From contig OZ316891.1 in assembly GCA_973895155.1 (NCBI GenBank), forward strand, positions 31,751,112-31,815,111: a stretch of 64,000 nucleotides of DNA. Direction: 5' to 3'. The notes below the pieces were generated by a model, which was not told the DNA's origin, searched no databases, and was given only the letters and a program-made list of their open reading frames with translations. A program made the translations under genes and the position numbers. The DNA comes from Marsupella aquatica (Eukaryota; Plantae; Marchantiophyta). Below are positions 26-62,399 of the stretch, piece after piece; the first letter of the stretch is position 1; each line of letters opens with the position of its first letter.

Positions 26-2954
26 GTGTTCAAATTTTGCAATTCCATTGTGTTGGCTCATCGAAGAGGAGCCTTTGGTGGGAGAGATGCATTGTGGGAT
101 TTGCTGAGAGATGTAGCTTCCAACCTCAATAGGGAAAAGCAGGGTCAGAGGTGGCGATCAGGGTCAAAGCTACTTGTCCAAACACTGTACCAACATGGGG
201 GAAGACATGTAGTTGACTGCCTACAGACTAATGGTCTAGGCCCTAGTCTGAACACCCTTCAACGAGATCGAAGGGGTATGGCAGTGTTTCGTGTTGGTAT
301 ACGAGCGGAGCAATTCAAGTTTGTGGCCGAAGTGTACTCTCGACTGAAACAGAGGATGGGTATCGATGGTCCTGTGCCATGCTATGTGGCTGAGGATGAG
401 ACTGTTGTGAAGCGCACAGTCAGGTGATTTCATCGTCATGATTATCATCTATCATTGAATTTGAGCTCGGTACTTGTTACCATGGCTAGATTGACTCGGC
501 AATTCACTGAAGTTTTCATGTGCCATGCAGATGGCAGCCTAAACATGATACACTTTTGGGATTTTGTGGAGAGAAAGAGAACCATAAATGTGTGGTGGGC
601 TTGACATGAAGGTTGGAGAGGGAGAGGAGGGCTTCAACAACATAACTGAAGCCTTTCAAACATATGTTGTTGGCCACCAAGCAAGAGCGCTTGTAGTGAA
701 TCCCCTGGTTCGTGGATTTCCTCGACTCTGTGTAGGAGGTACCATTACATGCAACAAGTTTAAGGCGGACGATGTAAGAGATCAATGGAATGACATTGGA
801 TCCCTATGGACCACTCATTGCTTGCAGTCAGTCGGCCCGCTCTTGGGCCATGCCAGTGGTGGGGATTCTCGTAGGAGGAAGCTCATGCTGGAAGACTACA
901 CTGGTAAAGGAATATAGGGGCCCAAACAGAACCTTTGCTAGGAAGGATGGCTATTGAGTCACTCGTTTACCACTGAGGGGCCCTATGTGCATGCTCATGG
1001 GTTACATGATCAAGATTACATCCACAATGGGAAGAAGCTCATCAACACATTGGATTCCTTGGCTAGAACATTGAAATTAGGGGCGCATGTGGCAAGTTGG
1101 AGTCATTTGGGGACTGTACAGAAGCTTGGTAGCCATGATGAACATGGCATTAACCTTGCAGACATTGGGCATAATGATAGACAGAATTGGGCTAGTGCAC
1201 AGAGACTCTGTAGTAGGAAAGTAGTCTCATCATTGAGGAAGCTTCGACAACGGAAGGATGTGAAAGTGGAGATGTCACTCGGGACTGAGATTTATGTAAC
1301 CATATGTGCAGACTATTTTGATGTGTTCATGAACACATCCCTTACTTTGCGGCAACGGATTGTCCTATGTGGAAAAGTTGGTTTCTTTTTCAGACTTTGG
1401 AGACTCTGGTGCTTCCATGGGAACCATACTGTAGGTGGTAATACACAGCCAATTAGTTTTACAGCAAGTTGCGTCCCTATGCAAACTTTCCTGGACATTC
1501 AAATATCAGTGCATTTTGTGGTCCTTCTGATAGTCCAATTTAGAGAGAATTTCCGACATCTGCCAGTACCCTTGCAGATGACAGGCTCTGACTGTTGTGA
1601 ACAGTTTTTCTCTAAAGTAGGTGGGATGAAAGGGAATGAGCGAAACTATGACTTTTCGGAACTTGTTGACTGTGCAACCTCTTTAAACAGGTTGGCAGCA
1701 ATGGACCTGAGTCGTGGGATTGTAGGTGCAGGGAGAAGTCATAAGAAGCACAGGTCCATTTGGATGTCTCTCATTCCAGGCCCTAAGGAGGATGCTGATC
1801 AAGCAGACTATTCAGGCATAGAAACAAATGAGGAAGTTGCGGCAGCTTTGAAAGAGGGGTTGTTGTTGGCGCAAAATGTTGCCACTCAACTTGAAATGAA
1901 CCCATTCACATCTTGCAAAGACAAAGTGTGGTGGGATTCACCATGGATCATGGAACAGAAAGGGTCAAAGTTTGGTGGATGGTGTGATGTTCGAGTGGAT
2001 GATCTCAATCCAGCGGATGATGTACTAGGTCCCTCGATCCAGCTCTCAACAGGACCTGTAGTTGGGCCACAGGTCCCGAGTACAGTACCGCCTTTTGTAG
2101 ATCCTACTGCTGAAATACCTGTTGAAACTCCTATGGAAACGGAGTTGTTAGTAGATGAGGGAGATGATGGGGTTCCAGATGTTCAGATAGCTTCTGCTGG
2201 ATGTGTGGTAGTTATGTCCGAGATTTATGCTGACCTGGTGTATGGTGAGCCTATTGTTGATGTGAAACCTACTGTGAGTTTCCAGGGTCGGCAAATATAC
2301 AAGAGCACATTGGTTAGTCAGCTTGTTGGGAATCCCCATCTTAGTAAGGACCGTTTGACTCATGTGAAGCAGAGCATTTATTTCAACAATTTAGTGGATA
2401 AGCCAGTGAATCGAGGTGTACCCACTATGTTCATGACTGTTGGTAGTGACTGTGGTGTATTATTTGAAGATAATACACCACAGGTGAGAGAAACTCGAAA
2501 TTCTGGAGGAAGTTCTCGATGCTTGAAAGGGAAAGGAGTTCGAAAGAAAGGGTGTAGCCAGGACTCTAGTGCCCTCCCCAACCCAAAGAGGCCACGAGGT
2601 GTGGCAGTCAATGTGGCCACAGTACCTGACAGTCCTAAATATGTGTGGTGGATAGGACGAGTACAATGCATTCAGAGGAGGTATAATGGGAAAGTTGGTA
2701 GAACAAGAGAAGCTGTGGATTTGCTTGATAGGCCTGGTGCTGATCAGGGAGTGAAAGTTTGATTTGATTGGTTTTCACGGGTGGGAAATAGCAGGCTAAA
2801 ATTTGCGTACAATGTCTCCGATCCTGACTGGATTGACTTGGACTGTGTCATATCAGCAGTCACTTTATCAGTGAATCTTGGTTGTCCAAACGTCTTCCAC
2901 CTGGATCAGGCAGATGCAGTTGTTCTGGATGATTTTGTCCAGACCCAAAAGTGA
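26..2954 (+). pseudogene. P-element-like DDE transposase, spliced, with stops and frameshifts
   Basis: Motifs in P-transposase order: AEDET (D1), HASGGDSRRRK (D2 region), QDYIHNGKKLIN (DxxH), GSDCCEQFFS (E). GT-AG intron 424-530 joins RTV|RWQPKHDTLLGFCG. Stops at 915 and 2760; the frame continues to TGA 2952-2954. Confidence 0.65.
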
Positions 2955-3317
2955 TTTGGGCGGGGATTTGGGTAAGCTCTAAAATTGTTTTCTGATGAAT
3001 GATATTCATTGAATGATTGCAGGGCAATCAAGTTGATGTACAAGCGAGTACGTACTGTAACTATCTATCGTCTTCAATTCATATGCATGTGGAGAGGTTA
3101 TAGATAGCATTTAATGTACATCTTTATGCCACAAGCAAAATGTAGTCTCCCCTAATTTGCATGTTCTGATGAGGGTTACTTGGCTTGCCTCAGGTGTCTT
3201 TGTTTGCTTGTGTTCTGTAACCTGGCCTGCAACAGACCGGGCAACAGACCCGACAACAATATGGTGTGTTCTAGACCCGGTTCTAGAGGGAGCACAGTGA
3301 AACATCGAATATATTGA

Positions 3318-3800
3318 TTGGATGTACCAATGCCCAAGCGGGGGCTGAAGCATGACCCCACTCCACGAAGAGAAATGTTGCCGAGGAGTGGGCCTAGTAG
3401 GAACGGGAGTAGGAAAGCTGGAGACGGGACTGGAGAGGGGGCTGGAGAGACTAGGAAGCACGCTAGGAAGTCTCCTATTGTGATGTTAGCTAATGAAACA
3501 ATCTGTCCCTCTAATTTCAAGAAGGACAGCAGTGAAGCCCAATGGATTTGCACTGAGTGTGGTGATGAAAGTCTTTGTAATATTTGCTCTCAGTTTGCAG
3601 AAGTGAATGCTCCCATCCCATATGAATGGAGCAACATTAAGAATCTGTGGCCTAGTAGGATGCCCAGTAGGATGTCTGGCACATTAGAGGCAGGAGTAGT
3701 GTTTGACTTCTCTGCCCTGTTAAGTGGAATACCGTGTGCAATGTCACCTCTGTTAATGTCTTGTAGTGAGATTTCGCTGGAATCGTTTGGAGAACTTTGA
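3318..3800 (+). CDS. Small hypothetical ORF inside the P-like element (CxxC...CxxC)
   Basis: 160-aa ORF containing CTECG...CNIC; no family recognised. Confidence 0.25.
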   Translation: MDVPMPKRGLKHDPTPRREMLPRSGPSRNGSRKAGDGTGEGAGETRKHARKSPIVMLANETICPSNFKKDSSEAQWICTECGDESLCNICSQFAEVNAPIPYEWSNIKNLWPSRMPSRMSGTLEAGVVFDFSALLSGIPCAMSPLLMSCSEISLESFGEL

Positions 3801-4163
3801 TATGTAATCTAGTATGAATTAGCTGTCTAGTGATTTGTGTGCTAAAGTCCCAATGACTTTCACACATTGCCAAAAATTATATGGCAATATGTTTGTTTAG
3901 TGTAAGTTGTAAGTGCCATTAACTGGCAGATAAAAAAAATGTGCACTCGTATTGGATGTCTTCACAAAACGATTTTTTTTATAACAAATGAAGGGTATTT
4001 TAAATCCCAAAATCTGTGTGATTATAATAACATAGGTAAATTTTATATAGGATTGAAAATTCTCTTTAGAACAAACAAGATATATTTTAATCTTCGTCCA
4101 AAATATAACTAGGGGTGCCTAGGGGACCTTCGGTCACAGGTATGTCTCATTACATTCCCTTTA

Positions 4164-5699
4164 GTGAGGGCCCAGGGTTTGCAGGATGTCCAAGGAATTT
4201 TGGGACAGGTAATGGGTTCCAACTTCACTTGGAGGAGGGTTCGCAATGGGCGCATTATTCAGTCTCGGCTTGATCGGTTTTACCTTAGCGAAAAAGGGCA
4301 GTGGATGGCGGAAATCATTGAACTCAAACATGATGGCTCTTCTGCTTTATTGGATCATTATCCGGTTACCATTACCTTTTGGATGACCCCTCTCTACGAT
4401 ACGGAGCTGATTACCCGCAGAGCCACATACTTTAAAGCGAACCCAGCGATTCTAAGAAAAACAGAGAATATTGAAACTCTAGCAGAGGCCTGGAAGGATG
4501 GGCAGGAAAGCAAGATGGATGCACATTTGAAGTTTGCCAATGCATTTCAGAGGCTGAGACGAAGCTACATGGAATTACAATACTCTCCGGTCCCGTGGGA
4601 TGAAGAAATGGTGAGAGTAAGGAATAAACTTCGCTTGCTGAAAATTGCGATCATGGATGATTACTCAGAAGATACTATACAAGATTTTTCTTGTATTGAT
4701 CAGTGTGTACATGAAATGGAGTTAGAAGAGGCCCATCATCATCGACGTATGTCTAGAATAACTTGGCTGGGGCAGGGAGAGGAACCTTCTAAGTTTTACT
4801 TTTCAATGGTAAAGGCTAAAAGAGTAAGAGAAAATATGGAATATCTGATCAATGAGGAGGGGAGGGAGATACGAGAGGAGAAATTGATATTGATGGAGGT
4901 ACAACGACATTGCCAGGCGTTATACACCCCACCGGTAATGAATAGCGAGGAGCTGAGGAAAATTCATGTTGCACGAGACAGATTATGTCAACATACTCAC
5001 TTCGCTCTGCCTGCTGCGGAGATCAGAAGGCTGGAGAGGCTACCCACTATGGAAGAATTACATGAGACACTAAGATTACTACCAGGAGATAAGGCACCAG
5101 GAATAGATGGCATGACCGCGGAGGTCCTACGTGCTTGCTGGGGATTCATGAAAGAAAATTTCTTGGAAATGGTGTGCGATTTTTGGAGGACCGGTAACAT
5201 CGCTTTTGGAATCAAGGAGGGTGTGATCCGGTTCATTCCCAAGAAGACTGACAAAAGAAGATTGGGAGATTGGAGAGGGTTAACTATGCTCACAACTACA
5301 TACAAGGTGATCGCAAAGTTACTTGCTCTGCGACTCAAGATACTGCTACCTAGATTGATTAGTCCACAGCAGACGGGATTCATCCCGGGGTGACACATTT
5401 TGGAAAATATTTCCCTTACCTGGCTAGCTAGCGATTGGATTAATCTTATGCAAACCCCCACTTTATTTCTACAACTCGATTTCAAAAAGGCCTTTGATAG
5501 GGTAGATCATTCCTATATCTGGGAAACTATGAACTTACTACCTGGAATAGGGTCTCACTTCATCTTTCTGGTTCGATCTCTACTTAGCAATGGATTATCC
5601 AAAGCGTTAGTGAATGGATTGTGGACGGAGGAAATTGGTATGAGCCGGGGTGGAGACAGGGATGCCCTCTCTCCCCGCTACTGTTTGCTATCTCCACAC
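4164..5699 (+). pseudogene. LINE ORF2 5' part (endonuclease C-terminus and RT N-terminal half)
   Basis: ORFs 4164-5393 and 5400-5798; premature TGA at 5391. Confidence 0.9.
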
Positions 5700-6368
5700 G
5701 GGTATAGCCACCGAGACAGGAAACAAGAAAACAGGAATTCTAGTAGCAGATTTTTTTGCTGTTATCAGGAATATGTTGTTGTTACCAGGAAAAGTTAGTC
5801 ATTGGAATAGGATAATACTTCATTACTTCAAGCCCAATACATCTGAAAAAAGCAATATGCATTGCGCTTCATTTAGATTCTAGAGCTTAGAACCAACTAA
5901 CACGACAACAATTGTTCTCTGAAGATAAGTGAGTCCGGAATCACCAACATACTTCTGGAAAATAGTGTCCCAAAAATCACAGACACACAACCATTAACCA
6001 GTGAATGCCACGGGAAAAAACATTGACATGGTAGGTCCCACCATAAGTAACATAATATTATAGGCCAACAATAAGGCAGAAAACCACAAATGAAAACTCC
6101 GGACAATTTGAAAGACCACCAATGATGGGCTAGCGCCTGGCGCTAGCTAAAATGGAAACAACAACACATTTAGAAAATGACATTGGATGAATGCAGAATG
6201 TGGCAAACAAAAATTTAAAATATCATTTGTAGTGATAGGATTACAATGAAGTAAATGGTAATAAGGAAGACTTCCATCCCAGCGCTAGGCGCTAACACAA
6301 AACTATACCGTTGTAATACGACAAAAACTAATATAACCATTTCGAGCAAAGGACAAATATATCCTTCT

Positions 6369-9300
6369 CTATAAACCATGAGCATTCTCCCTTTCCAAGA
6401 TCAGTCGGACTTCTCCAACTGTGAGAATTGGTTGGCTGGTCAAAGTAGATTCCTCAACATCTAGTTTGAAAATGGTCTGGAAAACCCAGTACAAATGTTT
6501 GCAAGGCATATATATGGATGTCTGCGAGAATGTTGACGATAGAAATCCTCACAAGAACAAGTCGGGAAAATACAAATCTGCACAAAGTAACTATTCGGCG
6601 TCCTTAGATTCTCATGTGTTTGTACTTTGAATTGCTTCCCCCATGAGTTCCCAATAGAAACATCCCACTGTCCCTGGACGGACATGGTCTCTTTTCTTGC
6701 AGATTCAATCCTCTTCATGTGACCATGGGTCAAGGTCGATCAAGGAACCGTGTTCTTTCCATTCCGACTCCGGAGACAAACAGTGGGTTCCAAAAGATTG
6801 ACTCTCTCTGGAAATAAGTTTACATTGATTCGAAGCTTGAAAAGTGATGGTGGAGGTAGACGACCGTCTCTTCCTTGGGCTATAGGTATTCCCTGTTCAA
6901 CAAGATACTTCATCTCAGCTTCCAAAACATTTGTTCCTTTTATAACAGGAAGAACATCGGGAAAGGAGGGCAGGTTCACTACACCACGGCGGGGATGGCT
7001 CCGATAACATGTGTTGTTTGGGCAGAACCATATCATTTTGGCTATGGGTTCCCCCTTGAACATGCGTTGTCCTTTGACAACAATGCCGATGACACCGTTT
7101 GATGAGGGGAACCCAACTTTCTTCACTCTATTTTGACACTCATCTCTCTCGGAACTACCGCCAAATGACGCGTTGCACTATGGACCGGCCCCAAATCTTG
7201 ATGTCCGACGCAGATGCCATGAACCCTGCATGACTTCTGTTTCAAGAATTGGAGATTGGAGCGATGTCTGCTGAAGTACAGTGGGAGCACTTTGTGGGTA
7301 TTGTGTTGAACGTGATTGATGTTGAACCTGCGGTGTACTGAAATCATCACGTTCTACATCCCTCAAATCATCACTTCCTGAGAGATTGACAACGGAAATG
7401 TCATTAGGTTTTTCTTCCGATACGGAAGCAAACATTGTGTGGTGCAGATTTTTACGCTTGAGTGATCTGGTATTTGACGATGTGATAAGGACTTTATCAT
7501 ACCGGTGGGAGTCTTGTGGCGAGACAATCCCAGTTGCAGGTCCTTTCCTCTTGACAGACTTTGTTAGAACATCTCCGTTGAGAGGAACGCTTCTCTCCAA
7601 GTCAAACTCAGCTGCATTGGAGAGGAGCAAGTTCATCGCATCCTCGAACAGCTTTGGGGAACCTGCCTGGTCAGCTGAATGGAAAGCCAATTCCCATATT
7701 GTAGGACCTCTTCCTCTACTCAATCCTTTCCGATATGCGATATATGCTGCAACCTGAGATATAGCTCGATTCTGATCCATTTCACATGCCTCGAAGAGCC
7801 CCACTTTTTTTTCATTACCCATGCTTTCATTCCTGCGTGAACAGACTCTGATCCGGTATAGTTAGGAATCCTAGCGCCTTCTTTAGCACTTTTGTCCTGG
7901 AACGGCAAAGCATAAACACTAGTAAGAATCCGCAAAACATACTAGCGCCAGGCGCTAGGCAGAACATTTCGACAAAACCATCAATATTATTGTGTAATCA
8001 CATGTTTATGGAAATAAATAGGTCAATATTTGAGAATCAATGACATTATTTGGATTCTTTGGATGGAATGTTGAGGAATGTCATCTGAAAAATGTACTTC
8101 TACAAAGGAATCTGACTTGCATATTACTAGCGCCAGACGCTATTACTCACCAAGCGAATAAAATTTCCCCACTGCCTCCAACACACGACCCACCACGATA
8201 TCCAACTCTGAAGCATTCGGAGCTTCCCAGGTAAGCAGTTACCCGACTGCCACCATAGGTCAATCTCTCTTGAAAGTCGGTAAGCCTCTACAAATGTCGG
8301 TGCGTTCCATAATTTATCCCATAGCATTCGATGTTCCGCCTGCTTCTCTTCCAACACTCCTTCAACAGAATGGCGATGAAAAGCTTGGTAAAAATGAAAA
8401 GCGTCCATCCTCTCCCGTTCAGGGTTTGGGTGCCCTCCAAAAAAAACATTTTGGACTGCTAACCATCTGGCTTGGGCATTGTCTGCCATGAAGCCATGAA
8501 TGGTTGGATTATCTAACCCATTCTCTTTGGAAACCTCAATCATTAATCTCCAAGCCTTCTCAAACGACGCCGTGTCCTCGGCTTTTAGCTCGCAAGTAAA
8601 TATTGTACACAATGCACGGTAATTATGATCATAAATGTGTGCGCTGAAAGTCACCCAATCCTTGGTCATTTGTTTCATGACATCGAAGCTTACCCAGGCA
8701 CCTTCAAGCATCCCTCCAGGTTGCATTTGCCGCATAAGATCCACCCCAGACCCATGGCCTTTGGAAGTCATCTTAAATATGTAAGGTCTGTCTTCTTGAG
8801 ATCCTTGACCTGGAAGGATGTACCTCTGTAGAAAAGGCATGTTGATATTCTTTTGATACCGAACAAGAAAATCCAACTCTCCACGGCCTTTCTGGTCCTG
8901 CCTAACACTCCTGAAAAGAGATGCAAACTTCTGTGGAGTATAAACTACCATTAGAGACTGGAAAATCTCTGTCTCTTCAATATCTTCAATCTCACCCAGG
9001 CTCTCACACAAAGACTGTACAAAAGATCCTGTCGCTACATTTTTAATCCCAGCAGGCATCCAAGTAGGATTGCCTTCCAATTTCTTTTTAATGACATCTT
9101 CAACTACCTTTTCCGCACTCCGGGAAAATACCTTACGACAAGGATGGTTGTGGGTGCCCACATGAATCGCAAGGCGAGACATGTGACTACAAGTATCTGA
9201 GTCAAGCAGAACTTGAGGATACATATAAAATAGTCTTGCAGAGCATGCCTCTACACAAAAAGGGAGCTGCTGGCAATGATGACAAACAACTCCACCCTGC

Positions 9301-10139
9301 TCAATGAACGATCCAACACGGTGAGAGCCTCCAAGTTTCGGGGAACCAGCCCATGCCTTTGCATTCCTCCTCTTCTTTCGGCGGAAGTAGTCACAAGTTT
9401 TATTCCTGCACTCAATAAATCCAGTACAAGTGACTTTACTGAATTCCCAGTATTTCTTGGGCTGCACGTTTGCAGTGGTAGGAAATATTCTTGTCCAGAT
9501 GTAGCAATCCTTGGTTCGGTCCATGTCCCGTAGACGGGATCCTTTTGAAAGAATTCCCGACGATGGAGGCAACTAAAACACTACGTTTCCATTGTACTTC
9601 GGAGGCAAACAAGGTACTTGTTCATGCCGGAAGTTTCCAGCCGAAATGAACCTCGAAAGTTTGCTGGACCCAATTGACTTGAGCAGCGCGTCCATTGCAC
9701 TTCTTCGATATACAATATGGGATTTTGACGATGGCATCTCCTCTTTGACCAAGACCACGTCAGGAGCCAAAGGCTCCACAAAGGGGATCCTTGGTGGCTC
9801 CTCATCATCACTATCAAAAAGAGCAACTACATCCACCGGATCCCTCTGAGGGGATTGCCGATCTCCTTGATTTGGTTCCCAAACGACAATGGAGTAGCGC
9901 AACCCAACATTAAGGTGCCAAAATCTCACCCCATCATTGACATCAAAAAGTGCGACAGATTCAAAGTCATTGGCTTCCGTTCCCTCCTCAACGATTGCCT
10001 CTATGTCATTCATGCGCAAATGAAACCTTCCACAAAGATAAACCTCACTTATTTGCCTGTACCTTTTGGCCACTGACACTGGAATGGAAATGATGTCACC
10101 GGTGGACATACGGGTAACTATGATTGACTGAGACATCAC
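6369..10139 (-). pseudogene. MULE transposase (GCM-like Zn domain, DDE, SWIM), one intron, several stops and frameshifts
   Basis: N-terminal CRNKTC, CHHC and GTHNHP (GCM/FAR1-like); WVSFD (D), FMADNA (D), DAFH (CxxH position), GSESVH (E); C-terminal CSCEDF...CKHLYW SWIM finger. Phase-0 GT-AG intron 8150-7897. Confidence 0.85.
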
Positions 10140-11112
10140 AGAAGCCTTGGAAGCAAATGAGCGCAGGAAAATTATGAATCAAAATTCTGCCGACGAGGGC
10201 TATTATCGATTGTGACTAACAGTTCCCTAAAGCCGTTATAATAAGACAATCCTCTGACACCATAAATGTATTTTGTCGTTATATCAACGTCATTTACAAT
10301 AAACATCATTTAGGAAGAACCCTTTTGTTCTAGAAATATCAGATGATGAATAGCGCCAGGCGCTATTAAAAACATTGCAAAAGAAGAGGTCCATGCAGAG
10401 TCATTTATGTGCAGCGCCTGGCGCTATTAATAACAATCCAAACGATTAGTGTCGATCTAACGTAAATTTATGTGTAGCGCCGAGCGCTAATAAAAGCAAA
10501 TGACGTAAACCAAAGTCCTAAAGGAGACACTAGATGATTAGCGCCAGGCGCTAATATTGATATCATTCATATTATGAACGTATACAATGGTAAAAACTAG
10601 AAGTAGGAGCCTTCAAAAGGAAGAAAAATCTTTGTTTTTTGCTAGCGCTAGTTTTATTTTGTATCAGAATTATGAGAAAACCGGATTTTGGGGAAAATAA
10701 TGGCATATTAACGACTCTTATGGCTCTATATTGAATTCCCAACTGACATAAAAATTGAAGATTTTAGGCCTTGGAAATTACTAGCGCCGGGCGCTACTAT
10801 TTGGTGAGTAAAAATGGATTCAAAATATTTTGAGGTTTTCCTTTCAACGGTCATATTCAACGGTAACTATAGGTTGCGTGACCCTAAATACATCGATCCC
10901 CTTTGGTGTTGTCGAATAAGATAACAACATGTGTCACAGATCCAAGCTAGTGGTTCAGTTTCCTTAGCGTATATGTTATGCTCTGTGCTCTAGATTCTTC
11001 TTATTTCCCATGTTAAGTACAGTATGATCGAAGCTGTTTGACGGGTTTTTGCCGTTCGTGGTATGGAAAGAGCGCGGTGGTCATCACTACTTCCTTCGCC
11101 CTTGTGCAAGCA
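10140..11112. promoter_or_regulatory. Putative bidirectional promoter between the transposase and ParB-MTase genes
   Basis: AT-rich spacer of about 1 kb between divergent start codons, with five full palindromes at 10351-10796. Confidence 0.5.
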
Positions 11113-14100
11113 ATGGACCCTGCCTTATCCTCCTCTCAATGCTTTAGTGGAAACGGGCACAGAGAGGTCGTTCCCTCGCAAACATCTCAGTGCTCATTTT
11201 CAGGATCTGTGTATAGTCGTCGAGTGACTCGATCCACTACTTCGCAAGCTCCTGAAGCACAACCCGCTGTATCGTTCCCGAATAGCAAGAGAGGGAAGAT
11301 GGATGATTCTAATTCGTTTGCTGTGGAGGACTTTGGAGAGACGTCGTTGACTATTTATGATGTGATCTCCAAACACATTATGTCATTTGGAAAAGATTTC
11401 CGAGGATATGACAAGGATCCGCCAAGGATTCCAATGTGCCGACTACTTCATATGGAAGTAGTGCGGACATTACAAAAGGGAAGCCCTTCGATAGAGAAGC
11501 TGAAAGACTCCTTTCAGAGCACAGGATACAATTCTAAGATCGGCATGTTGTTTTACGTCCAACCAACAGATTCCAATGGAGAAGTCCAGATCTGCACGCC
11601 AGAGATTCGTGCTTCTTGGGATGCAATTTGGGTTGCAGAGAACAAAAAGTTTGAGGCGGAATGTGCTGCCAAACCTGACTTCTCCGTCCTGCAAGATAAG
11701 ATGTTTTCTGTGTTTGATGGAAACCATCGACTCTACGCATGGTCCATCGTCACGAAGGAGAATCCGGATGATGTGAAATACCATCCTCGCATCCAGTGCA
11801 CAATATTCAAGGGAGAAAAGGGGTCCTTGATCGAGATTGAGGCAGCGATGCACACTGTTAACCAGTAAGTGTCTCTTCCAATATATTTCTAATCTAATCT
11901 ATGACCACAGTGTTTCACTAGCGCCGGGCACTACTGACTCCCTCTATCGTTTTCAGGCTTGGGCAGGCAGTGGTCAAACCCTCTTGGATACTTGATGCAG
12001 ACGGTATCAACCAAATTCTCTCGAATGAACTCGATTACTACAAGTCTATCATTGACGCTGCAAACTTCAAGAAGTTTGGGCAGATCATGCAGAAAACGCG
12101 GAGGGATCGTGGTATATGAAAAAAATGCCTCAAGAAGCGCTTATGTACATCTTGTGTGAGAATAAGATCAAGTCTTATTCTTGGCAGTTTAAGATGGATC
12201 TGGAACATGCTGCCGCTCAGGGTACACCTTGGTCTCCCGAAGAGATTTCAAAAGGACATGCAGCGATGATGAAGGAGGCAACAAAGGATTGGGCGATAAA
12301 GGTGTCAAAAATCACTCCTCTGTTAAGCCCCGCTTTTGAGGATTTCATGCGGACATGTGCTGAGATGTACCCCCTCACAGAGAAGAATAAGAGAGAGAAG
12401 AAGCCGGATGCAGTTGTCTGTACAATGGATCGAGCAAGATTGTTTACCGCTGTCTCTGCCCTCGACCCCAAGCTGAGGAGTACCCTTCTGGTTGCCCATT
12501 GTACACCGGAGCTGAGGAAACAATTCTTCCATCCACAGAGCATTAATGACGATCTAGTGAAGCAATGGTGCCATACCTGGCAAACTTGGAACATTGTGGA
12601 GGGAATCGCTATTGGTTTGCTGCAAACCTCCCTACGCCAGGTTAGTGATATAGTCCCCGCCAATCGGTTGCAAGAGTGGGAGTGTGAGTCGATTGAATCG
12701 CTTATTGAAATAGTCTCAAATGACTTCAAGAAATTTGGGGACGCTGTGAAAGGCAAGTTTTTTAATACAATGTGGCCTTCCAAGTATCCTGACAAGGCTG
12801 ACTACAACCTCAAGAATCAGAAGAGGGCCAAACAATACCTGTATCGTTTTTTCAATCATGCACATGGAGATTGTGAAGCTAGATTACTTTTGGGCATACC
12901 CTGCTGCTTTCCAAAAGTGGATCGTTGTTCCCGAAGGAGACATACTGGCCGACGTGTATTCAATGTATCCCGCTGAAGGGTGTCTTCCACCAAGGGAACT
13001 GTCAGAATGGGAGAGAATTCATTGTCCTTGGTATTTGGACACCGATAGATGGGACTCTCCATTCAGAGACACTGAGAAAGACGCATTTCATAAGCTTTCA
13101 AAGTCTCAGGTCCCTCCCAAGTTTGTGTCCAACATGAAGCAGGGAATCGAAGGTGATGTGAGCAAGTCGGCGGCAGAATTGCAAGCGGTGTGTGAAACCA
13201 CAGTTGTTCATGTTGATCGAAGTTGCACACCCAGAGCCAAAGCAAAAACCGAAGCTGCGGCACCGAGTACCTCAACACGGTCCGCCAAAAAATGTAAGTT
13301 GTCATTCAGCTTGTAGCTTCACATTTTGGTTAGCGCCAGGCGCTGCTATATGACTATGTCTATTGGTTTGTTTTCTCAATTGGTTTGGACAGTGCCTGGC
13401 ACTATTATTCAGCATTGAATAAATTCTGCTCTTTTTCCTTTAGGTGGGAGAAAGTTTGACGCTGCAACCGATGACACAAAAGTAGATGCCACTCCGGAGC
13501 CTTCCGAAGCCAATACCGGTGCCCAGTCAGACCCAATAACTCCAATTGACAAAGCGAAAGAGATCGTCCCTTTTGATGCAACCAGTACAAATAAGAGGAA
13601 GAAAAGGGCAATTCAAGCAGAAGAATCTTCCCGAGATGATGCCGCTGGAACTGGTGTTCAAAGAGATGTGGGAACCTTCAAGAGCAAATCTTTTAGGCAT
13701 TGCATGGTGGAAACAAGTATCCAAGAATTTATTAATACTGCTTTCAACAAAGCAGTGAAACCAGATTGGGTGACTAATGCAGAGAAATGGGGAAAGGACT
13801 TAATCAAGTCGGGTTCCCGAGAAAAGGGAGTAATCAGAGGAGGAAAAGAAAGATCGTTTGGTGTCAATGCAGGATTCATCTATCTTCCTACTGGACTTAA
13901 ACCTACGCTCATGGACCGTCGGGTTCCAAAGTGGAATGTACCAGACCACACAGTTCCCGGTTCTTTCTTCAAAGTGATGGACCCTTTCCTTTTTGATGAT
14001 GGCATGCTTGCGATCTTGTATTCTGATGACCATGACCAGGTCTCGTAGGTCATTTCAACATGCCAGCAGTCCAAAAAGTTCCATTGTGTCAATTCTCACA

Positions 14101-14823
14101 ATGTCGTCATGTCTATGCCCATGTACAGAGCAAAGACCGATATTCAGGTACAAATCATTGCATATCTTGTTTATTGTTAGCGCCTGGCGCTAATTTAGTC
14201 TTTGCTGTAGTTCTCGAATCATTAGCTGTCGGTTGATAATTTGAGCCAAATGTGTGCGATGCGTGCAGGTATTTACCCTTAGGCTAGACATATTTTGTCA
14301 GACTTCTTCAAAAGGAAAGGTACCAAAGGATCCAAGGTTTAAGCCTCTATCAATAACTGAAGATCCTTTGATCTCTAACTTGATTGGGCTTCCAACCTTG
14401 AAGACAGATCATTGCCCAGAGTTGGATTTTGCTGGGAACGCCTGTCTTTCGGTTGGTTTTATGCAATCGGTGATAGAGCTTTTTACTCTTCCTGGAGATA
14501 TTGTCCTTGACTGGACTGTAGGTTCAGGAAGCACATTCATTGCTGGTGATTTTTCTGGTCATTTCATGATTGGGTTGGAAAATAGGCGTGAGTTTGTTGA
14601 GGCTGCATCAAGGGTTTTCTTAGAACTTCTTGATCCCAAGCATGTTCCGATATTGACTCCTCCCGCGACCAATTTAAGTGGTCGCAAAAAGAAAGATAGG
14701 CTCCGATCTGTTCTCAATTTTGATTCTGACGAAGAGGAAGGTACCTTTGGAGACGTCGAAGATGACACAAAGAAAACCCAGGAGGAAGATTCTTCGAAGA
14801 AGAGCGAAGACTCAGACGAGTAG
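11113..14823 (+). pseudogene. Spliced gene: ParB/Sulfiredoxin-like N-terminus fused to an N4C/N6A DNA methyltransferase-like (N6_N4_Mtase) C-terminus; this copy is lightly disrupted
   Basis: FSVFDGNHRLYAW matches the ParB/Srx signature. IELFTLPGDIVLDWTVGSGSTFIAG...MIGLE...FVEAASR matches motifs X-I-II of beta-class amino-MTases. GT-AG introns 11865-11956, 13294-13443 and 14148-14268 link the ORFs. Frameshifts near 12110 and 12855; TAG at 14046. Confidence 0.75.
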
Positions 14824-15990
14824 TGTTCTTCCAGTAAGCTTCTTGATCCTTTCAAGTGTTGTTGATAATTTTGGGTTCTTGCTCTCTTATTTCCTAAACT
14901 TATATTTTTTTCTGTTTTACTGGATCAGGTCAGAATGGAATCTGAGGAAGCGTTTCCAACTCCGGAGGAGACTAGCTAGGAATGTAATTGTCACTCCTGA
15001 GAAGCCGTTTGTTTTGCCCTCATACGCTGAAAATGCCGCTAGGAGGGTTGACAAAATTAGAACGCTTTGTTGGGAAACAAAAGGTCTACGTCTTCAGAGG
15101 GGAGCAGACAGGAAGTTCATGAGGAACCCTTATATAGATGATGTTTCCCGAAGCAAGTACATTGATGATGAAGCCGAGTCCACGGACAGATCTGAAAGCT
15201 CCGCATCAGAAACATCTGGTAGTTTATAGGTAGCAATGGGGTTTTCTTCAAATATGTCCTTTAATGTTTCAATATGTAACCATTTCGATGAATTGGCTGA
15301 TTTTAAGCCCTTTCAACTCTTACTAGCGCCAGACGCTCCTCAAACATACTGTCTTTATTATATTTTTATTTCAGATTCTTGAAGTTTGAGTTGTGAAGAC
15401 GTGTGCTCAGGTGCAATATTGGCTAGCGCCGGGCGCTTCCCAATTTTCTAAGGGTTCTTGGGTGTGGATTCTTTCATGGCTGTGGTTGCATAAATGTTTT
15501 GTTTTCCGTCTGGTTTTGTGGTATTAGGTGAACTGGCGGGAACAGTCATGGATCTTTGCAGCTACATGTCTTCTAGAAAGACCCTGATCGGGAGGAGGCT
15601 GGAATAGATGATGGTTGTCAACTGGGATTACTATAGTAGCTCCAGGCGCTACTGAAAGGTTTTGGTTAATTATAATTGACTTAAATAGCTTTCCGAGATT
15701 GAACATTTCATAACCCCCTTCATTAAATATCCTTCGAGAGTGCAATTGGTACAAATTATAGACTCTTCACAGCGCCCGGCGCTAGCAATAATCGTGGAGA
15801 GTTCCTATCGCTACAAGTTTCTTATATTTATTCCTGTTTGTTTTTTTGGTGTCTTTTAAGAAAACCTCGCCTTCGACGCTATTTTTACCTGAATTGAGAC
15901 TAGAATTTTCCTGTTACCAGTATTTTTACCTATTACCAGTTTCTGTTATGAATACCTATTTCCTGTTTTCCTGCCTTTTGTAAACACCTC

Positions 15991-17881
15991 CTCCACGCAG
16001 CCATTTATGGATTTCTGTAATGCAGAGCTCGCTGCTGGTAGATTGCAGGGTCTTAGGATTAATTCTTCTTTACACATATGCTTTAGATTGTTTGTGGATA
16101 ATGTAGGATTGTTCATCCCAACCACTGCTGAAGCTTTTGACCAGGCAAAAGAGGCGATTAGCTGTTATGAAACGGCCTCAAGAGCCAGACTGAATCTGAA
16201 AAAATCTGTGATCATCCCATTTGCTTTAGAGGTGATTCCGGAGTGGCTTAGAAACACCGGATGCAAAATTAGCGAAAAAGGTATGGTGTAGTGCTACCTT
16301 GGAGCACCCTTCGGAGTGGACCTGTTGGAAGCACAGCTGCATAATTTTTGTCTAGATAAAATTGGGGCGAGGCTATCATCATGGTCCACCAAATTTGTAT
16401 CGTTCACAGGACATTTAGTGCTGATCAAACACGTCTTATAGGCTATTCCAATATATCACATGATGTTTATACGATCATCAGGAGAGTTAGCTAAGAAGAT
16501 GACGATTCTGAATAGAACTTTTCTATGGGGAAGTAACCATCTCGGAGGACGCCGAATACCATTGGTGGCGTGGGAGAAGATGACACGACCTAAACTGGAG
16601 GGGGGACTTGGATTGAAGGAATTTAGAAGTCATTCTGATGCCTTGTTGTGCAAATGGTTTACTGGGGCACTGGATGACCCAAATTCTGAATGGGCCAAAA
16701 TGTATGCGGCGAATCTTAGGCTGACAAAGTGGCAAAATTACAAGACTATGAGGAGGAATCACTATTCCATGACGGATCTGCTATTACTGAGTACCCCAAG
16801 ATCTTTTGGTAAATTGGCATATACGGGAAAGCTTTGGGGTGCATGGGCTAAGGTACGAGAATACTTGATTTTTTGCCCTGGCACAGGCTCTATTCCAGGG
16901 AATTGGGGCATTGAGGACACAATACGTTGCTTGCACGGTTTTTATCATCTGCTCGAGAAGGATATCACATAGATTGTCCAAATCTTTGGTCGATTGGGAA
17001 TTTGGACCACACTGGACCTCTGGTCTACTGTGGACAATAGATGGAAAGACATGTTAGGAAAATTACAAAGATTGAGAGGATTTACCATCACTGGCCAAGC
17101 ACAAAGCGCATTACTTCTTCGAAATCTTACTGAAGCCAGGATTGGAAGTTGCGCACCACTGGTGGATGCCTGCCTTTGGAGATGGACAGATTTAGCTGCA
17201 AGGATGAGGAATTTTGGATTATCCAATACGAGGGTATATGAGATGCTACAACCCAAGGGCACGGACTTGGATCGTTTAAACCAAATATGGAGAGAAGCAC
17301 TTACAGAGATGGAGTGGAGAGGCATTTGGAAAGTGTTGTGGAGATCAGACCTTTCTATGAGAGTGAAAGTTTTCATTTGGTGCGTTCTAGCAAAAGGATT
17401 ATTCTCGAGATCAAGGGCATTGAAGATTGGGAAATCTAATGGTCACTGTCTGCTCTGTGACAACATGTTAGAAACCATCCCCCATCTATTCTGTCACTGT
17501 TGTCATGCACAATGTTGTTGGATTGAAGCTAAAACTTGGATGAACGGAGATCTCATTGGTACCTATCTGAGCATCATTGGGCTGCTGAGATCCTTTCAAG
17601 GTCGCACACTGTTACACTCACTCAGGGCATTTATAATTTACCAGATTTTATGGAGCATCTGGCTTGCTAGGAACTATGAAACCTTTGATTTGGCACAGCG
17701 ACAAGTGTTTGATCAATTACAGGTCATTTCAGACACAATGGATCATCTGGCTGCCATTATTGCAGCTACCATCCCCACCTCTGACAGGAAAAGGAGTCGA
17801 CTACACGCTGCATCTGAAATGCTGAGAGAGGAACGCACAAGGCTTGTTAGGTCTGAAGTTAGAAGGCTAATAACTCGATAG
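15991..17881 (+). pseudogene. LINE ORF2 3' part (RT C-terminal half and zf-RVT)
   Basis: LFVDN (degenerate FADD), YLGAPFG, PKLEGGLG, CLLCDNMLETIPHLFCHC; several stops. Confidence 0.9.
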
Positions 17882-25087: not shown

Positions 25088-26244
25088 AATGATAGTGTGA
25101 TATTCATTCTATTTTGGTGCAATGAGAACCGTCATCTCCTCGTCAGTCCAATCTGGCAACCATCATCAGAAAGCATGCCATCATCAAAAAGGAAAGGGTC
25201 CACAGCTCAGAAAAAAGCATTGGGAACTGTGTGGTCTGGTACATTCCACTTTGGAACCCGACGGTCCATGAGCGTAGGTTTTAGTCCAGTAGGAAGATAA
25301 ATGAATCCCGCATTGACTCCAAATGATCTTTCCTTTCCTCCTCTGATGACTCCTTTTTCTCGGGAACCCGACTTGATTAAGTCCTTTCCCCATTTCTTAG
25401 CATCTGTCACCCACTCTGGTTTCTCTTCTTTGTTGAAAGCACTCTCAATAAATTCTTGTATGATTTGTTTCCACCATGCAATGCCTTGTGTTATGAGTTA
25501 AACCTAACCCGTTAACCCTAGGTAATAGAGGTTAAGGAGTAGTTACATAACTACCTCCATATAACCCCACATATGTACCAAACATTAACATTATTATTGA
25601 TGTTGGAGATTGGAGTACATTCTGGCTATGGTGTCCTCATTCTAACACGTTATCAGCACGTCTCATTGAGCAATGTACATAGGCCAATAGTAGAAGAACT
25701 TACGAACATGCAATTTGATTACCCTCCATCTATAGGAAAGAAATTGAATACATCCTCAGGACGATAGTACAGCCATGAAAGGACAATTTTACATAGTTGT
25801 TTCCCCTTAAGACCCAGGAAGGATTGAAATCATAGGAACAGTCTTCCTCCCACACATGACCTGTTATGCAATCCCACATTCAAAGACCAAGATGTACATG
25901 GCCCGGAAATAGCACAGATTACACTCAGGATTCCGAAGACCATTGATAACAACAACTCCAAAGTGCGCCCTCATGAAATTGCCCAAGATTATGGACATTT
26001 GATTGCGTACAGACAACATCGAGTATAAATTCACAACAGGAAGCGGCCTACAAAGGGAAGTCATACAAACATTTGTGAATCCCTAATCATTGATCAAGGA
26101 TCTAATATTTACTCATGTCATAGTACCACTACGAAATTAAGCTCACACACCAAATTGTGAGAGGGGGATCATTGACATTTCAAAACCGTTGAGAAGGCCT
26201 ACAATATCTGCATCAGAAGAAGACCATAAATAAACTACACTTAT

Positions 26245-28293
26245 ATGGCAAAACTGACGCTAGAAAAAAAAAGCTTCCAAGAATTGGCCATAGATGGATC
26301 AAATTATCTATCTTGGTCCCTAGATATGGAGGCACATTTAGCAGCTAAGGACATACCAGATACTATAATCACAGATAATGGGCCCACATTACGTGAAAAA
26401 GCTAAGGCCCTGGTTTTCATAAGGCACCACCTAGCAAAGGCCTTGAAAACCCAATACTTAAATGAGTACAATCCGAGAATACTATGGGACAAATTAAAAC
26501 TCCGATTTGATCATATGCGATTGATCTCAGTGCCAGCAGCGAGACATGATTGGATCAACCTAAGGGTCCAAGACCACAAGACCATAGCAGAGTACAATAG
26601 CAAATTATTTTGCATAGTATCCGGGATAGTATCACAACTCGCGGTCTGCGGCAACCCAGTTGACGATGCTGAGCAGATCGAGAAGACCCTGTCGACGTTC
26701 CACCCAACAAATTTGGTATTAGCGGCTCAATACAGAAATATGGCATTCACAAGATACTCCCAGTTAATAGCACATATGTTATTAGCAGAGAAGCACCAAA
26801 TCTTACTTATGGAGAATTCAAAAACAAGGCCCTCGGGTACTCTCCCACCCTTAACAAAACCAGAATCACAATATAACAGCAATAATCAAAGGGGTTTCAG
26901 GGGGAGGAGTACCTACAGGGGGCGGGGTGGACAACCTGCAGGAAGAGGAAGAAACCAATTTCCCAGAGGAAGAGGTGCAGGACGCATCAATAACTCTGTA
27001 AATGACAGACCAAGGTGGCAGAGCCGAAACACGGATCGCGGCAGAGGGCATGGAAGAATCAGCAACTACGGCATACCAGATAAGAGATACAACCCAATCA
27101 AATGCTTTAGATGTGGTACACAAGGACACACAAGAAAAGATTGCAGGGCTCTGGCATCACACCTAGTTAATCTTTACCAGGATTCAATAAACAAACCTAC
27201 AAAAGAACCCCAAGGCAATTTCCTAGAATTACATCAAGAGCTCACGCAATATGTTACCGAACCCCCATCACCGGAAATACATACAATTACCTATGGAGCG
27301 GAGGATTCCAAACTAGCAGACCCAACACTCTGTATAATCGACAGCGGCACCTCACACACAATTTTAAAAGAGAGAAAATACTTCACCAACATTACCCCAT
27401 CATCAAGAACCATCACAACAATTTCTGGCCAAAAACAGATAGAACACGGGCATGGTCCAGCTACTGTCACACTCCCAAGAGGGACTGTGATCCACATTGA
27501 ATCTACAATTTATGCACCAACAGCCACCAGAAATCTGATTAGCTTTTTGGACATCCGAGCAAATGAACTACATATCTCCACCAGCACCCACAACAATCAA
27601 GAAGTCTTGCAAATCCTTAAGAAAACACCCAAGGGACTACAAGTCCAAGAAATACTCCAGGCACAACCCCCAGGATTATATGTGACTCCAATACAATCAC
27701 ACTATCCTGAGCATAAAAAGCAGCATATTGCCATTACTTGGCATCACCGGTTGGGACACCCTGGCACAAACATGTACCATAAAATTCTTAAAGACTCAGT
27801 GGGCATCCCACAAGCAGCAAAAACATCCTTTAAACATGATCCTTGCATAGCATGTTTGCAGGGTAAATTTATTACTCGCCCATCGATTACCAAGACAGTG
27901 TATACTATCCCTAAGTTCCTGGAACACCTCAACGCTGACGTTTGCGGCCCTATCGAGCCATCCAATGGCCCATTCAGATTCTTTTTGGTTATGATTGACT
28001 CATCAACCAAGTGGTCACAGGTGTCCCTCATATCCACAAGAAACTTAGTATTCTCACGAATATTAGTCAATATACTTAAGTTGAGAGCACAGTTCCCGGA
28101 ACATCCCATAAGAATATTGAGAGTTGATGGAGCTGGGGAATTCACTTCAAAGACATTCAATGAATTCTGCCTTACCGCTGGAATAGAAGCCCAGTATCCC
28201 GTCCCATATGTACATTTCCAAAACGGGATGGCAGAGTCAGTGATCAAAAGAATACAACTCAGTGCACGTCCACTATTGATGCAAAGCCACTAG
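26245..28293 (+). CDS. Copia Gag-protease-partial integrase
   Basis: CFRCGTQGHTRKDC knuckle, IDSGT protease, WHHRLGHP...CIAC, ADVCGP, RVDGAGEF, QNGMAE. Confidence 0.9.
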   Translation: MAKLTLEKKSFQELAIDGSNYLSWSLDMEAHLAAKDIPDTIITDNGPTLREKAKALVFIRHHLAKALKTQYLNEYNPRILWDKLKLRFDHMRLISVPAARHDWINLRVQDHKTIAEYNSKLFCIVSGIVSQLAVCGNPVDDAEQIEKTLSTFHPTNLVLAAQYRNMAFTRYSQLIAHMLLAEKHQILLMENSKTRPSGTLPPLTKPESQYNSNNQRGFRGRSTYRGRGGQPAGRGRNQFPRGRGAGRINNSVNDRPRWQSRNTDRGRGHGRISNYGIPDKRYNPIKCFRCGTQGHTRKDCRALASHLVNLYQDSINKPTKEPQGNFLELHQELTQYVTEPPSPEIHTITYGAEDSKLADPTLCIIDSGTSHTILKERKYFTNITPSSRTITTISGQKQIEHGHGPATVTLPRGTVIHIESTIYAPTATRNLISFLDIRANELHISTSTHNNQEVLQILKKTPKGLQVQEILQAQPPGLYVTPIQSHYPEHKKQHIAITWHHRLGHPGTNMYHKILKDSVGIPQAAKTSFKHDPCIACLQGKFITRPSITKTVYTIPKFLEHLNADVCGPIEPSNGPFRFFLVMIDSSTKWSQVSLISTRNLVFSRILVNILKLRAQFPEHPIRILRVDGAGEFTSKTFNEFCLTAGIEAQYPVPYVHFQNGMAESVIKRIQLSARPLLMQSH

Positions 28294-28300
28294 TGAACAG

Positions 28301-29032
28301 GTGCTGGGGCCTGAAAAGCCCTATCTCTCAGCGATTGGAGCCCTCCTTTACCTAGCAAATCAGACAAGACCCGACATCAGCTTCGCTGTCAGCCTACTGG
28401 CCAGACACGGATCACAACCAACGATCAGACATTGGAATGGAATAAAGAGGGTCCTTCGCTACTTACAAGGGACAGTGGACATGGGATTATACTTCCCCAA
28501 GAATTCGACCCCAATTTTGACAGGATTCGCAGATGCAGGGTATTTGTCGGACCTAGATGATGCGAAGTCCCAAACGGGCTACGTTTTCCTGCAGGGCACA
28601 ACAGCGATTTTGTGGAAAAGCACGAAGCAGTCTTTGACAGCCACATCCTCCAACCATGCAGAAATTATAGCACTGTACGAAGCAACAAGAGAATGTGTGT
28701 GGCTTAGACACTTAATTGACCATATTAATCACAGCACTGGCAAACCACTGCTAACAGAACCTACCATCCTTTATGAAGACAATCGACCTTGCGTGGACCA
28801 GATCGCCAAAGGATTTATCAAAGGTGACAGAATCAAACACATTGCCCCGAAATTATTTTACGCACATGAACAACACGGAGAGAAGATTCAAGTTAAGTGG
28901 ATACCAACAAAAGATAACAGAGCTGACCTCTTTACGAAGCCCCTGCCTCCCGTCCTCCACAAGGCACATACATTTGGCATCGGCATGAGACAACTCACAG
29001 ACTTGTTACGCCCAGAAACAGAAAAGAATTAA
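28301..29032 (+). CDS. Copia RT C-terminus and RNase H
   Basis: YLSAIGALLYL, TRPDISFAV, GFADA, YEDN, ADLFTKPL. Confidence 0.9.
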   Translation: MLGPEKPYLSAIGALLYLANQTRPDISFAVSLLARHGSQPTIRHWNGIKRVLRYLQGTVDMGLYFPKNSTPILTGFADAGYLSDLDDAKSQTGYVFLQGTTAILWKSTKQSLTATSSNHAEIIALYEATRECVWLRHLIDHINHSTGKPLLTEPTILYEDNRPCVDQIAKGFIKGDRIKHIAPKLFYAHEQHGEKIQVKWIPTKDNRADLFTKPLPPVLHKAHTFGIGMRQLTDLLRPETEKN

Positions 29033-42996: not shown

Positions 42997-43788
42997 GCTG
43001 TTACATTCATGTCGTATGTGTCTCTTCACGGATTGTATAAGAGCCAAGTTCAAGAATGATGGATAACCTTTATTTCTGAATTGTAGGAGAGTGAGGTAGG
43101 CGCTTTCACGTTCATGTCATCTGTGTCTAATCACGATGGATTCTACAGATGATGGCTAGGCTTTATTTCTAAGTACTCTCTTTTCAGAAACCTGAGATTC
43201 TGGTTTGTTTATAGCGCAGAAAGGACAGTGTAAGCAACTTACAAATTAACGCCTGTCAAGATGCCCTAAGAGTCTGTCCTGTACACAACCCAAGGATAAC
43301 ATGTGACTTCTGGCTGAAGTATTTTAGTACCAATTCGATAGGCTCTTGACTCTGTCCTTTCTGTGGGTACAGTGAAATACGGGAGAAGGAACGAGCTTGT
43401 TGATACCTGGATACGCCTTTCACAATTATTTCAATATTCTATTCTAAGATCATTGCATTCTTGACAGATAGCCGTTATTCTGAGTTGGAAAGGAGTCATT
43501 TAACTTTTGCAAGTTATCTGTACCAAAGATCACAGCAGAGCAAGGGAGACAAGAAAATACATCTTTGGTCGGAGGTAGGAATGCACCCTAGAACTCGAGA
43601 GGCTTACCGGTCTGCTATCCATTTCTGAACACTCATTGTAGAAAGATCACTGGAAACATAGTCGTCAAGAAATAACTACAACTTCATTGCACCTCGTGGA
43701 ATCTCCTGGATTTTATCCTGGTAGCAGATCTGATCGTGGGTTGTGGTGCTGACAGAGGAAGCCCAGAGCACCTGAGTACAATCAGAAG

Positions 43789-61910: not shown

Positions 61911-62399
61911 CTGCACTTTTACGTCCTCCAATCCAGCGATCAAAGCTCTCAGTTGCTTCCTAGTATTCTTGAATTTGACCTTCTCCTTTTTGACATACTT
62001 CAAGCAAGTTGTCACCCAGGGCTCCCCATCACTAGATGATTTTGCTGAGGAGTCTTCCTCCAAATTTGACGGTTCAGACGATGGACGACGATGTGTTGTC
62101 CCTCCACTGTCTTCTTCTTTTTCTTTTTGCTCCCACACAATCTGGCGGTTGTTTGATAGTGTTTCGCTTGGGTGATTGCTGCCTGCAACATGTTGGGGGC
62201 CATCTTTCTAACTTCAAACTGTACACGTCAGGGTAGCCCCGAGATAAACCACTCCATTTGGAGGTTCTTGGGTGGTGGCACTGTCAGTTTCCTTATCTGT
62301 TGTTGGATGCGTTGAATATAATATTTGCAGAGTGACTCACAAGCACTCATCCGACTTTTGTTGAGCCAACGCACGATTCTTGCATCTGCTCCTGGTTCT

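Follow-up and report, generated by a model that had tools for sequence, protein, structure and literature searches.

What does the second gene of a two-gene transposon do, and what are the palindromes for that recur throughout the non-coding DNA of the same element? These questions are raised by a Mutator-like element (MULE) of the liverwort Marsupella aquatica, which lies within a stretch of 64,000 nucleotides (GenBank assembly GCA_973895155.1, contig OZ316891.1, positions 31,751,112 to 31,815,111 of the forward strand; we call this whole stretch the window and number positions from its first letter). The element, a Mutator-like transposon in decay, has two genes, one for a transposase and a divergent accessory gene, together with 17 copies of one palindrome. 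The original prediction, which was made from the letters of the window, had called this copy disrupted; both genes are indeed broken by stops and frameshifts, and because of this damage the present copy cannot work. For the family, our preferred reading, to which we assign a probability of about 0.42, is that the accessory protein binds the 17 palindromes via a ParB-type module and keeps the element transcribed or unsilenced, and that its methylase-like domain has little or no normal activity.

A palindrome array confined to non-coding DNA

The sequence AGCGCCNGGCGCT occurs ten times exactly and 17 times with up to two mismatches in the window. All 17 copies lie inside the element, between positions 6132 and 15783, and the remaining 53.7 kb of the window contains none at the same threshold. 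Shuffled sequences gave a mean of 0.39 copies and a maximum of 3, and 0 of 100 shuffles reached 17; the observed count being far above these values, chance repeats were rejected as the origin of the palindromes. Every copy (17/17) falls outside the exon model, though non-coding DNA makes up 30–35% of the element, a placement with p of ~2e-9 to 2e-8 if the sites are assumed to be independent. The count and the confinement to non-coding DNA had been predicted and were reproduced, as was the likeness of this layout to that of the motifs bound by VANC, the anti-silencing protein of VANDAL transposons. The flanks are mostly T and A on the two sides (13 and 14 of 17), which extends the site to a 15-bp palindrome.

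The array is dispersed, not tandem. Two copies lie past the transposase gene and two more within its intron; the gap between the genes has five, the three introns of the accessory gene have four in all (a candidate fourth intron has none), and a further four lie downstream of that gene; six of the 17 are within ~670 bp of the element ends and 11 are internal. The groups outside introns are as follows.

6132–6293, two palindromes 3′ of the transposase gene (6132, 6281)
10352–10795, five palindromes between the divergent genes (10352, 10413, 10476, 10540, 10783), the first four 61–64 bp apart
15325–15783, four palindromes 3′ of the accessory gene (15325, 15425, 15638, 15771)

The accessory gene and its relatives

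The accessory gene stands head-to-head with the transposase gene. Its four exons add up to 1,114 codons, interrupted by one stop and two frameshifts, and its three GT-AG introns agree with the alignment of homologues. Both motifs by which the gene had been predicted, DGNHR near the N-terminus and IGLE near the C-terminus, were located, and the four exons originally proposed fit the homologues; to these we add a fifth coding segment, which, judging from its match to one collected relative (P0017), probably belongs to the same gene.

11113–11864 (+), exon 1, with 11113 or 11299 as its start; ParB/Srx-fold domain, DGNHR at 11716–11730, conserved Asn at the exon end
11865–11956 (+), intron 1, one palindrome (11920)
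11957–13293 (+), exon 2, encoding a helical middle region that is conserved; frame shifted near 12101 and again near 12852
13294–13443 (+), intron 2, two palindromes (13332, 13391)
13444–14147 (+), exon 3, encoding a charged linker and, of the methyltransferase-like domain, the N-terminal half; FIYLPTG at 13875–13895, stop at 14046
14148–14268 (+), intron 3, one palindrome (14179)
14269–14823 (+), exon 4, DWTVGSGST at 14509–14535, IGLEN at 14569–14583; Pfam PF01555
~14929–15229 (+), probable fifth coding segment, LPSYAENAARR...RNPYIDD; E 1e-4 against the C-terminus of P0017 only

A search with exon 1 found 231 representative relatives at E ≤0.001, 83 of them at 1e-10; among the matches listed, 60 of 150 stop at the position of intron 1. 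Thirty relatives, chosen mostly for length, were looked up, and 21 of these could be named: 16 are from the liverwort Riccia sorocarpa and five from Adiantum (two ferns). Residues 72–1094 of the window model align with R1sor_027256 (1,207 amino acids) at 26% identity and E 2e-76. Word-index searches among longer proteins, a metagenome scan with a single exon and a scan of viral contigs yielded no relative. A second metagenome scan returned four loci (L001–L004), none of which has a transposase match; L003 and L004, with a match of only 16 residues each, were not considered further, and L002 has part of the domain without a palindrome array.

Other copies of the element are represented in contigs of four public sequencing runs from three organisms (one of the four may derive from the source of the window itself). 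Between 272 and 6,237 contigs per run match the element at 80–99+% identity; in three runs they cover all 30 bins of the element, and in the remaining run 29 of the 30. Indels occur in other copies at the places of the present frameshifts: at 12101 in 4/4 runs and 12852 in 2/4 in the accessory gene, and a 2-base indel at 6508 in the transposase gene in 4/4. The diverged contigs and the indels at the frame-change sites indicate a multi-copy family in which the breaks are not family-wide.

These data bear on the possibility that the accessory gene is a one-off Pack-MULE capture accompanied by chance or slippage repeats. Among the contig pieces listed, none spans both genes in another copy, as such a capture would allow. 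Against it stand the diverged contigs over both genes in 4/4 runs from three organisms, the 231 protein relatives with an end-to-end liverwort match, and a palindrome count far beyond chance in a dispersed, non-tandem array. We regard the capture scenario as largely refuted and very improbable; that the gene belongs to a family, as first proposed, holds.

The N-terminal domain

In the ESM Atlas, the ParB-like exon of the window falls among ParB/sulfiredoxin clusters (0.92–0.95). For the relative P0153, a model of 1,023 residues was predicted from 83 alignment rows, with a predicted local distance difference test score (pLDDT) of ~95 for the N-terminal domain, moderate values for the helical middle and <50 for the methylase domain. 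Structural alignment of the N-terminal domain gave ParB with Z 9.1 (root-mean-square deviation (rmsd) 2.2 over 99 residues), Noc with 8.5 and KorB with 8.0–8.2, the superpositions having rmsd values of 2.1–2.5 across 93–99 residues overall; sulfiredoxin ranked below all three (Z 4.6–6.2). In a wide fold search, KorB (Z 8.0) came first among 48,161 chains. The Z values are middling, yet the top rows are a single family that covers the domain. This model and the Atlas clusters support a ParB-type fold, in agreement with the original prediction. Foldseek, which had been proposed with that prediction, gave weak E values for the P0153 model.

Sequence-based comparisons were less productive: a profile of 54 ParB-like domains matched no solved structure, and in PHROGs a ParB-like family appeared at E 0.27 only. 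Within the family, the G, N, H and R of the DGNHR motif are kept in 68–75 of 80 rows and the downstream Asn in 70 of 76, and by pattern these positions match the ParB P-motif and the clamp-closure Asn. In KorB, CTP binding depends on an Arg of the matching motif, and hydrolysis and clamp closure depend on an Asn (PMC11790492).

In the ESM Atlas, a fungal DUF3723 cluster (0.94, 31% of members) is also similar to the ParB-like exon (11299–11865). DUF3723 is a gene of fungal Starship elements. A literature search for DUF3723 together with ParB found no paper.

The C-terminal methyltransferase-like domain

The last exon matches Pfam N6_N4_Mtase (PF01555) with an E value of 6.8e-8, which passes the curated cut-off, the match spanning only positions 163–219 of the 221 in the profile; Pfam assigned no other family to the accessory exons. 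This end, which binds S-adenosylmethionine (SAM) in such enzymes, also matches DpnA, CcrM, MboIIA and phage methylases. By sequence, the C-terminus is a β-class amino-methyltransferase domain, as had been predicted, with its SAM motif kept. A single-sequence fold of its 95-residue methylase fragment was poor (pLDDT 52).

A candidate motif IV lies ~170 residues upstream of motif I, a place typical of the β-class, and reads FIYLPTG in the window. Among 155 collected proteins, six reach this region with a matching pattern: DLPT, DLPT (these two from one cluster), DMPS and DMPT in Riccia, and DFPI and DVPF in Adiantum. In the N4CMT model, the corresponding Tyr makes a stacking contact with the target base (PMC10406627). 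This aromatic is absent from the window copy (YLPT), from 4/4 Riccia proteins and from one of the two Adiantum proteins, which accordingly lack the catalytic pattern (D/S/N)-x-P-(Y/F/W), whereas D-x-P-Y is present in seven of eight phage or plasmid enzymes, the eighth being a split gene. Since the aromatic is missing from both the window copy and 4/4 Riccia proteins across ~26% identity, its absence is not decay of one copy. The liverwort-type domain is probably a pseudo-enzyme, the alternative being an atypical active enzyme.

That alternative corresponds to the 'self-marking' of the original prediction, in which the protein sits on the palindromes and adds N4-methylcytosine or N6-methyladenine through an unusual active site, blocking or competing with 5-methylcytosine deposition by the host. 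It would explain why the SAM-binding motifs are well conserved and why motif IV positions 1, 3 and 5 (D, P, G) and the following Trp are kept in 6/6 relatives, one of which, from a fern, has DVPF. An equivalent idea has been proposed for the algal transposon Sola1-1_Ec32 (PMC12477816), and the palindrome centre CCNGG is like the CCSGG target of bacterial relatives of N4CMT, a resemblance only. It is weakened by the loss of the base-stacking aromatic from the predicted motif IV in the window and 4/4 Riccia proteins, and transposon-borne N6-methylase domains are reported to be dead in DIRS1 elements (PMC4738411). We therefore judge a self-marking writer unlikely.

A second variant of the candidate site

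One of the metagenomic loci, L001, is a 1,931-bp contig with a relative that is 59% and 45% identical over two exons and has intron 1 in common with the window gene. This intron contains 19 palindromes of the form AGC-N6/7-GCT, many of them 20 bp apart, and the exons contain none; resampled introns had a mean of 1.3 and a maximum of 8 (1000 resamples). The outer AGC...GCT is common to L001 and the window element and the core is different. That site and protein appear to differ together in this one other family argues for recognition of the palindrome by the accessory protein; the array could also be an unrelated insert. The intron (337–1152, 816 bp) has a 20-bp-period array of AGCCC-N2-GGGCT-like units, with a 13-bp variant, AGCTYC-N-GRAGCT, in its 5′ part.

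Element borders, termini and transposase

The element and its ends are described by the following features.

5700–15990, entire MULE of 10,291 bp, with G...C ends and without long terminal inverted repeats
5692–5699 (+), left target-site duplication CTCCACAC, within a LINE reverse transcriptase
15991–15998 (+), right target-site duplication CTCCACGC, one mismatch relative to the left
5700–5869 (+), left terminus, four inward-facing CAGGAA hexamers, candidate transposase sites
15821–15990 (−), right terminus, four inward-facing CAGGAA hexamers, candidate transposase sites

The 8-bp target-site duplication with one mismatch and the G...C ends are within what is expected of Mutator/MULE insertions (8–11 bp). 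In-silico excision of the element with one copy of the duplication restores the reverse transcriptase frame of the host long interspersed nuclear element (LINE; RQGCPLSPLLFAISTQPFMDF), and the borders and this empty-site read-through agree with the single duplication-bounded unit of 10.3 kb that had been predicted. The CpG observed/expected ratio is 0.67 within the element and 0.54 outside, a comparison across elements of different age.

The ends have no long terminal inverted repeats (TIRs) of the kind that defines the TIR subgroup and are barely inverted (local score 56; 200 shuffles reached at most 52); by this feature the element appears to fit the non-TIR Mutator subgroup. Over both ends, the hexamer CAGGAA, which was selected by eye, occurs eight times facing inward and never outward (shuffle mean 0.14, maximum 3, 5000 shuffles). 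The hexamers are distinct from the palindrome.

8151–10136 (−), transposase exon 1, Cys/His-rich N-terminal region; SFD at 8673–8690, MADN at 8475–8489, DAFH at 8391–8405; stop near 9574
7897–8150 (−), transposase intron, GT-AG, 254 bp, two palindromes (7944, 8129)
6369–7896 (−), transposase exon 2, SESVH glutamate at 7837–7851; SWIM-like CSCEDF...CKH

Exon 2 is damaged by frameshifts near 7810 and 6508, the latter splitting the SWIM-like motif, and by stops near 7179 and 6741; in all, three stops and two frameshifts interrupt the gene. We assign the transposase to Mutator because its main piece falls among MULE clusters in the ESM Atlas (PF10551 MULE, 0.95, 172 shared features) and because an acidic triad, a D-x-x-H and a SWIM-like Cys/His motif are located in its translation. 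By comparison with DDE transposases of the Mutator type, SFD and MADN are presumably the first two acidic catalytic positions and SESVH the glutamate, and the D-x-x-H and SWIM-like motifs also occupy the places expected of such enzymes. The Pfam MULE profile matched none of the transposase pieces, and a word-index protein search with the transposase gave no match; the minus-strand MULE transposase of the original prediction thus stands on clusters and motifs, without the Pfam match.

The ends bear on two further explanations of the palindromes. According to one of them, the palindromes are sites of the transposase or of a host factor, and the accessory gene has an unrelated role. The AtMu1 transposase alone is reported to activate cognate copies (bioRxiv 10.64898/2026.08.24.746577), six of the 17 palindromes are within ~670 bp of the ends, and transposase and accessory protein both diverge with the family, so that the present data cannot separate them. 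Yet the ends have their own oriented hexamer, which would leave the palindrome free for the second protein, and 11 of the 17 palindromes are internal. ParB-type proteins, moreover, typically recognize palindromes, and in unrelated transposon superfamilies ParB cargo adjoins inverted-repeat arrays (bioRxiv 10.1101/2025.02.11.637652). We consider this explanation distinctly unlikely.

The other explanation is structural or repressive: a clamp formed by the accessory protein would compact the element, pair its poorly inverted ends for transposition, or repress both promoters from a distance in the manner of KorB, and host silencing would not be its target. The barely inverted termini, the spread of the palindromes along the whole 10 kb and the location of five of the 17 in the shared promoter region are in keeping with it, and KorB, the top match of the wide search, represses at long range in a CTP-dependent manner and has a palindromic operator of 13 bp (PMC11790492). 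Such a clamp leaves unexplained a methylase-like C-terminus that is kept over large distances, and non-TIR Mutator elements with a motif layout of this type are reported to use the motif for anti-silencing (PMC5735166). It is, in our estimate, improbable.

Comparison with known systems

The closest published counterpart is Sola1-1_Ec32 of the brown alga Ectocarpus, the accessory protein of which is ParB-like with an N4C/N6A methyltransferase and was proposed by its authors to bind and modify its own element (PMC12477816). The two proteins are of similar length (1,104 amino acids there, 1,114 in the window model), combine both domains in one chain and are encoded on the strand opposite to the transposase. 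Sola1-1_Ec32, by contrast, has a Sola-1 backbone and is 21.5 kb long, its available description names no binding site and is silent on the catalytic motif, and the likeness is one of description. Plavaka elements of red algae carry PAG2 and PAG3, with homologues reported for Mutator elements of Chondrus (bioRxiv 10.1101/2025.02.11.637652, section 8). Shared with the Plavaka case are ParB-like cargo by inverted-repeat arrays, PF01555 cargo and movement of the cassette among transposon superfamilies. There, however, ParB is joined to a 2-oxoglutarate oxygenase and the methylase to SET in two genes, with tandem repeats beside PAG3, whereas the window element has one fused gene and a motif dispersed across introns, promoter and ends.

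In VANDAL21, VANC21 binds motifs in introns, intergenic and terminal non-coding DNA, and its anti-silencing activity has been demonstrated (PMC5735166). Like the window element, VANDAL21 is Mutator-like and has an accessory gene and non-coding motifs that differ between families. The VANC motifs are tandem, the word 'palindromic' has 0 uses in the available text of that paper, and that text describes no ParB or methylase domain for VANC. ParB, Noc and KorB clamps (PDB 7bm8, 6sdk, 7ol9, 8qa8) share with the accessory protein the N-terminal fold, the G-x-x-R and Asn by pattern, and a palindrome of 13–15 bp (PMC11790492); they are 10–12% identical to it, lack the ~50 extra residues of its domain, have GERRxR in place of GNHR and have a ParA partner, which is absent here. 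MpDN4MT1a/b of Marchantia, likened to our protein by description, and N4CMT of bdelloid rotifers are further instances of a bacterial-type β-class amino-methyltransferase in a eukaryote, but these are host genes with an intact SPPY and demonstrated activity and lack a ParB domain.

The novelty claimed in the original prediction, a combination with no known description in a plant MULE, was overstated: the architecture and the hypothesis have been published for algal transposons, and related cargo is reported in red algal Mutator elements. A literature search for a land-plant report of ParB-methylase transposon cargo found none, most subscription journals being beyond its reach. The system in the window belongs to a class of transposon cargo described only recently, of which it is a Mutator-borne variant from a land plant; what is new is its occurrence in land plants, its Mutator backbone and its defined candidate site.

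A model for the accessory protein

Combining these observations, we propose the following model. An accessory-protein dimer would probably read the two-fold symmetric palindrome. A nucleotide bound at GNHR may then let the protein load and spread, as in ParB, Noc and KorB, a step that we regard as possible but doubtful. Given binding, it is slightly more likely than not that occupancy would counteract silencing of the element by the host, in the way that VANC protects VANDAL; we infer this role because of the VANC-like motif layout. The C-terminal domain quite likely still binds SAM or a flipped base and would read or shield the DNA instead of writing a mark.

Several points weigh against this reading. 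(i) Seven of the eight palindrome mismatches are C-to-T or G-to-A, which means that the palindromes of the present copy were not spared the usual decay. (ii) The ParB match is limited to the N-terminal domain: extensions to model residue 281 superpose on Noc or ParB with an rmsd of 8.5–10.9, and a helix-turn-helix for reading the site could not be made out in the helical region that follows. (iii) Z values of 8–9 are near the level that unrelated models can reach, Foldseek with the P0153 model placed Noc, ParB and sulfiredoxin at the top with E 0.08 or worse, and GNHR departs from the GERRxR of ParB. (iv) Motif IV was placed by pattern and position, its profile scoring 0.3–2.9 for three relatives and giving none for the window copy or P0153, the predicted fold of which failed in this region (pLDDT <50); and the DVPF of one Adiantum relative keeps the aromatic. 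(v) L001 is a single contig without a transposase. (vi) A Mutator transposase itself can activate cognate copies sequence-specifically, as reported for AtMu1 (bioRxiv 10.64898/2026.08.24.746577).

A stronger form of the proposal is a eukaryotic parS-style clamp encoded by liverwort and fern transposons, in which nucleotide-dependent loading at family-specific palindromes would be followed by spreading, the remodelled methylase would shield or re-mark the DNA against silencing by the host, and protein and palindrome would co-diverge. We consider this form unlikely.

Other features of the window

The remainder of the window contains the following features.

942–5699 and 15999–17881 (+), decayed host LINE with matches to RVT_1 and zf-RVT, the reverse transcriptase of which is interrupted by the element
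942–2762 (+), 606-codon open reading frame without a Pfam match
26230–29032 and 30561–35266 (+), copia-type gag-pol remains of similar domain order, possibly a tandem or nested pair
43753–47562 (+), PPR gene, 1,269 codons uninterrupted, with the domains E, E+ and DYW, likely an organellar RNA-editing factor amid transposon remains
61309–61959 (−), another reverse transcriptase fragment (RVT_1)

Significance

The main value of the element lies in its defined candidate site and in a testable pair of variants. Together with L001, a second natural variant, it offers a sharp candidate site for swap tests, and its relatives are found in liverworts, in which transgenics are routine. Two questions thereby become testable: whether a ParB-type clamp operates on eukaryotic chromatin, and whether cargo methylases are writers or pseudo-enzymes. 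If the parS-style clamp were true, land plants would have a second anti-silencing system, independent of the first and defined in its mechanism, and a programmable spreading factor for plant chromatin would become available.

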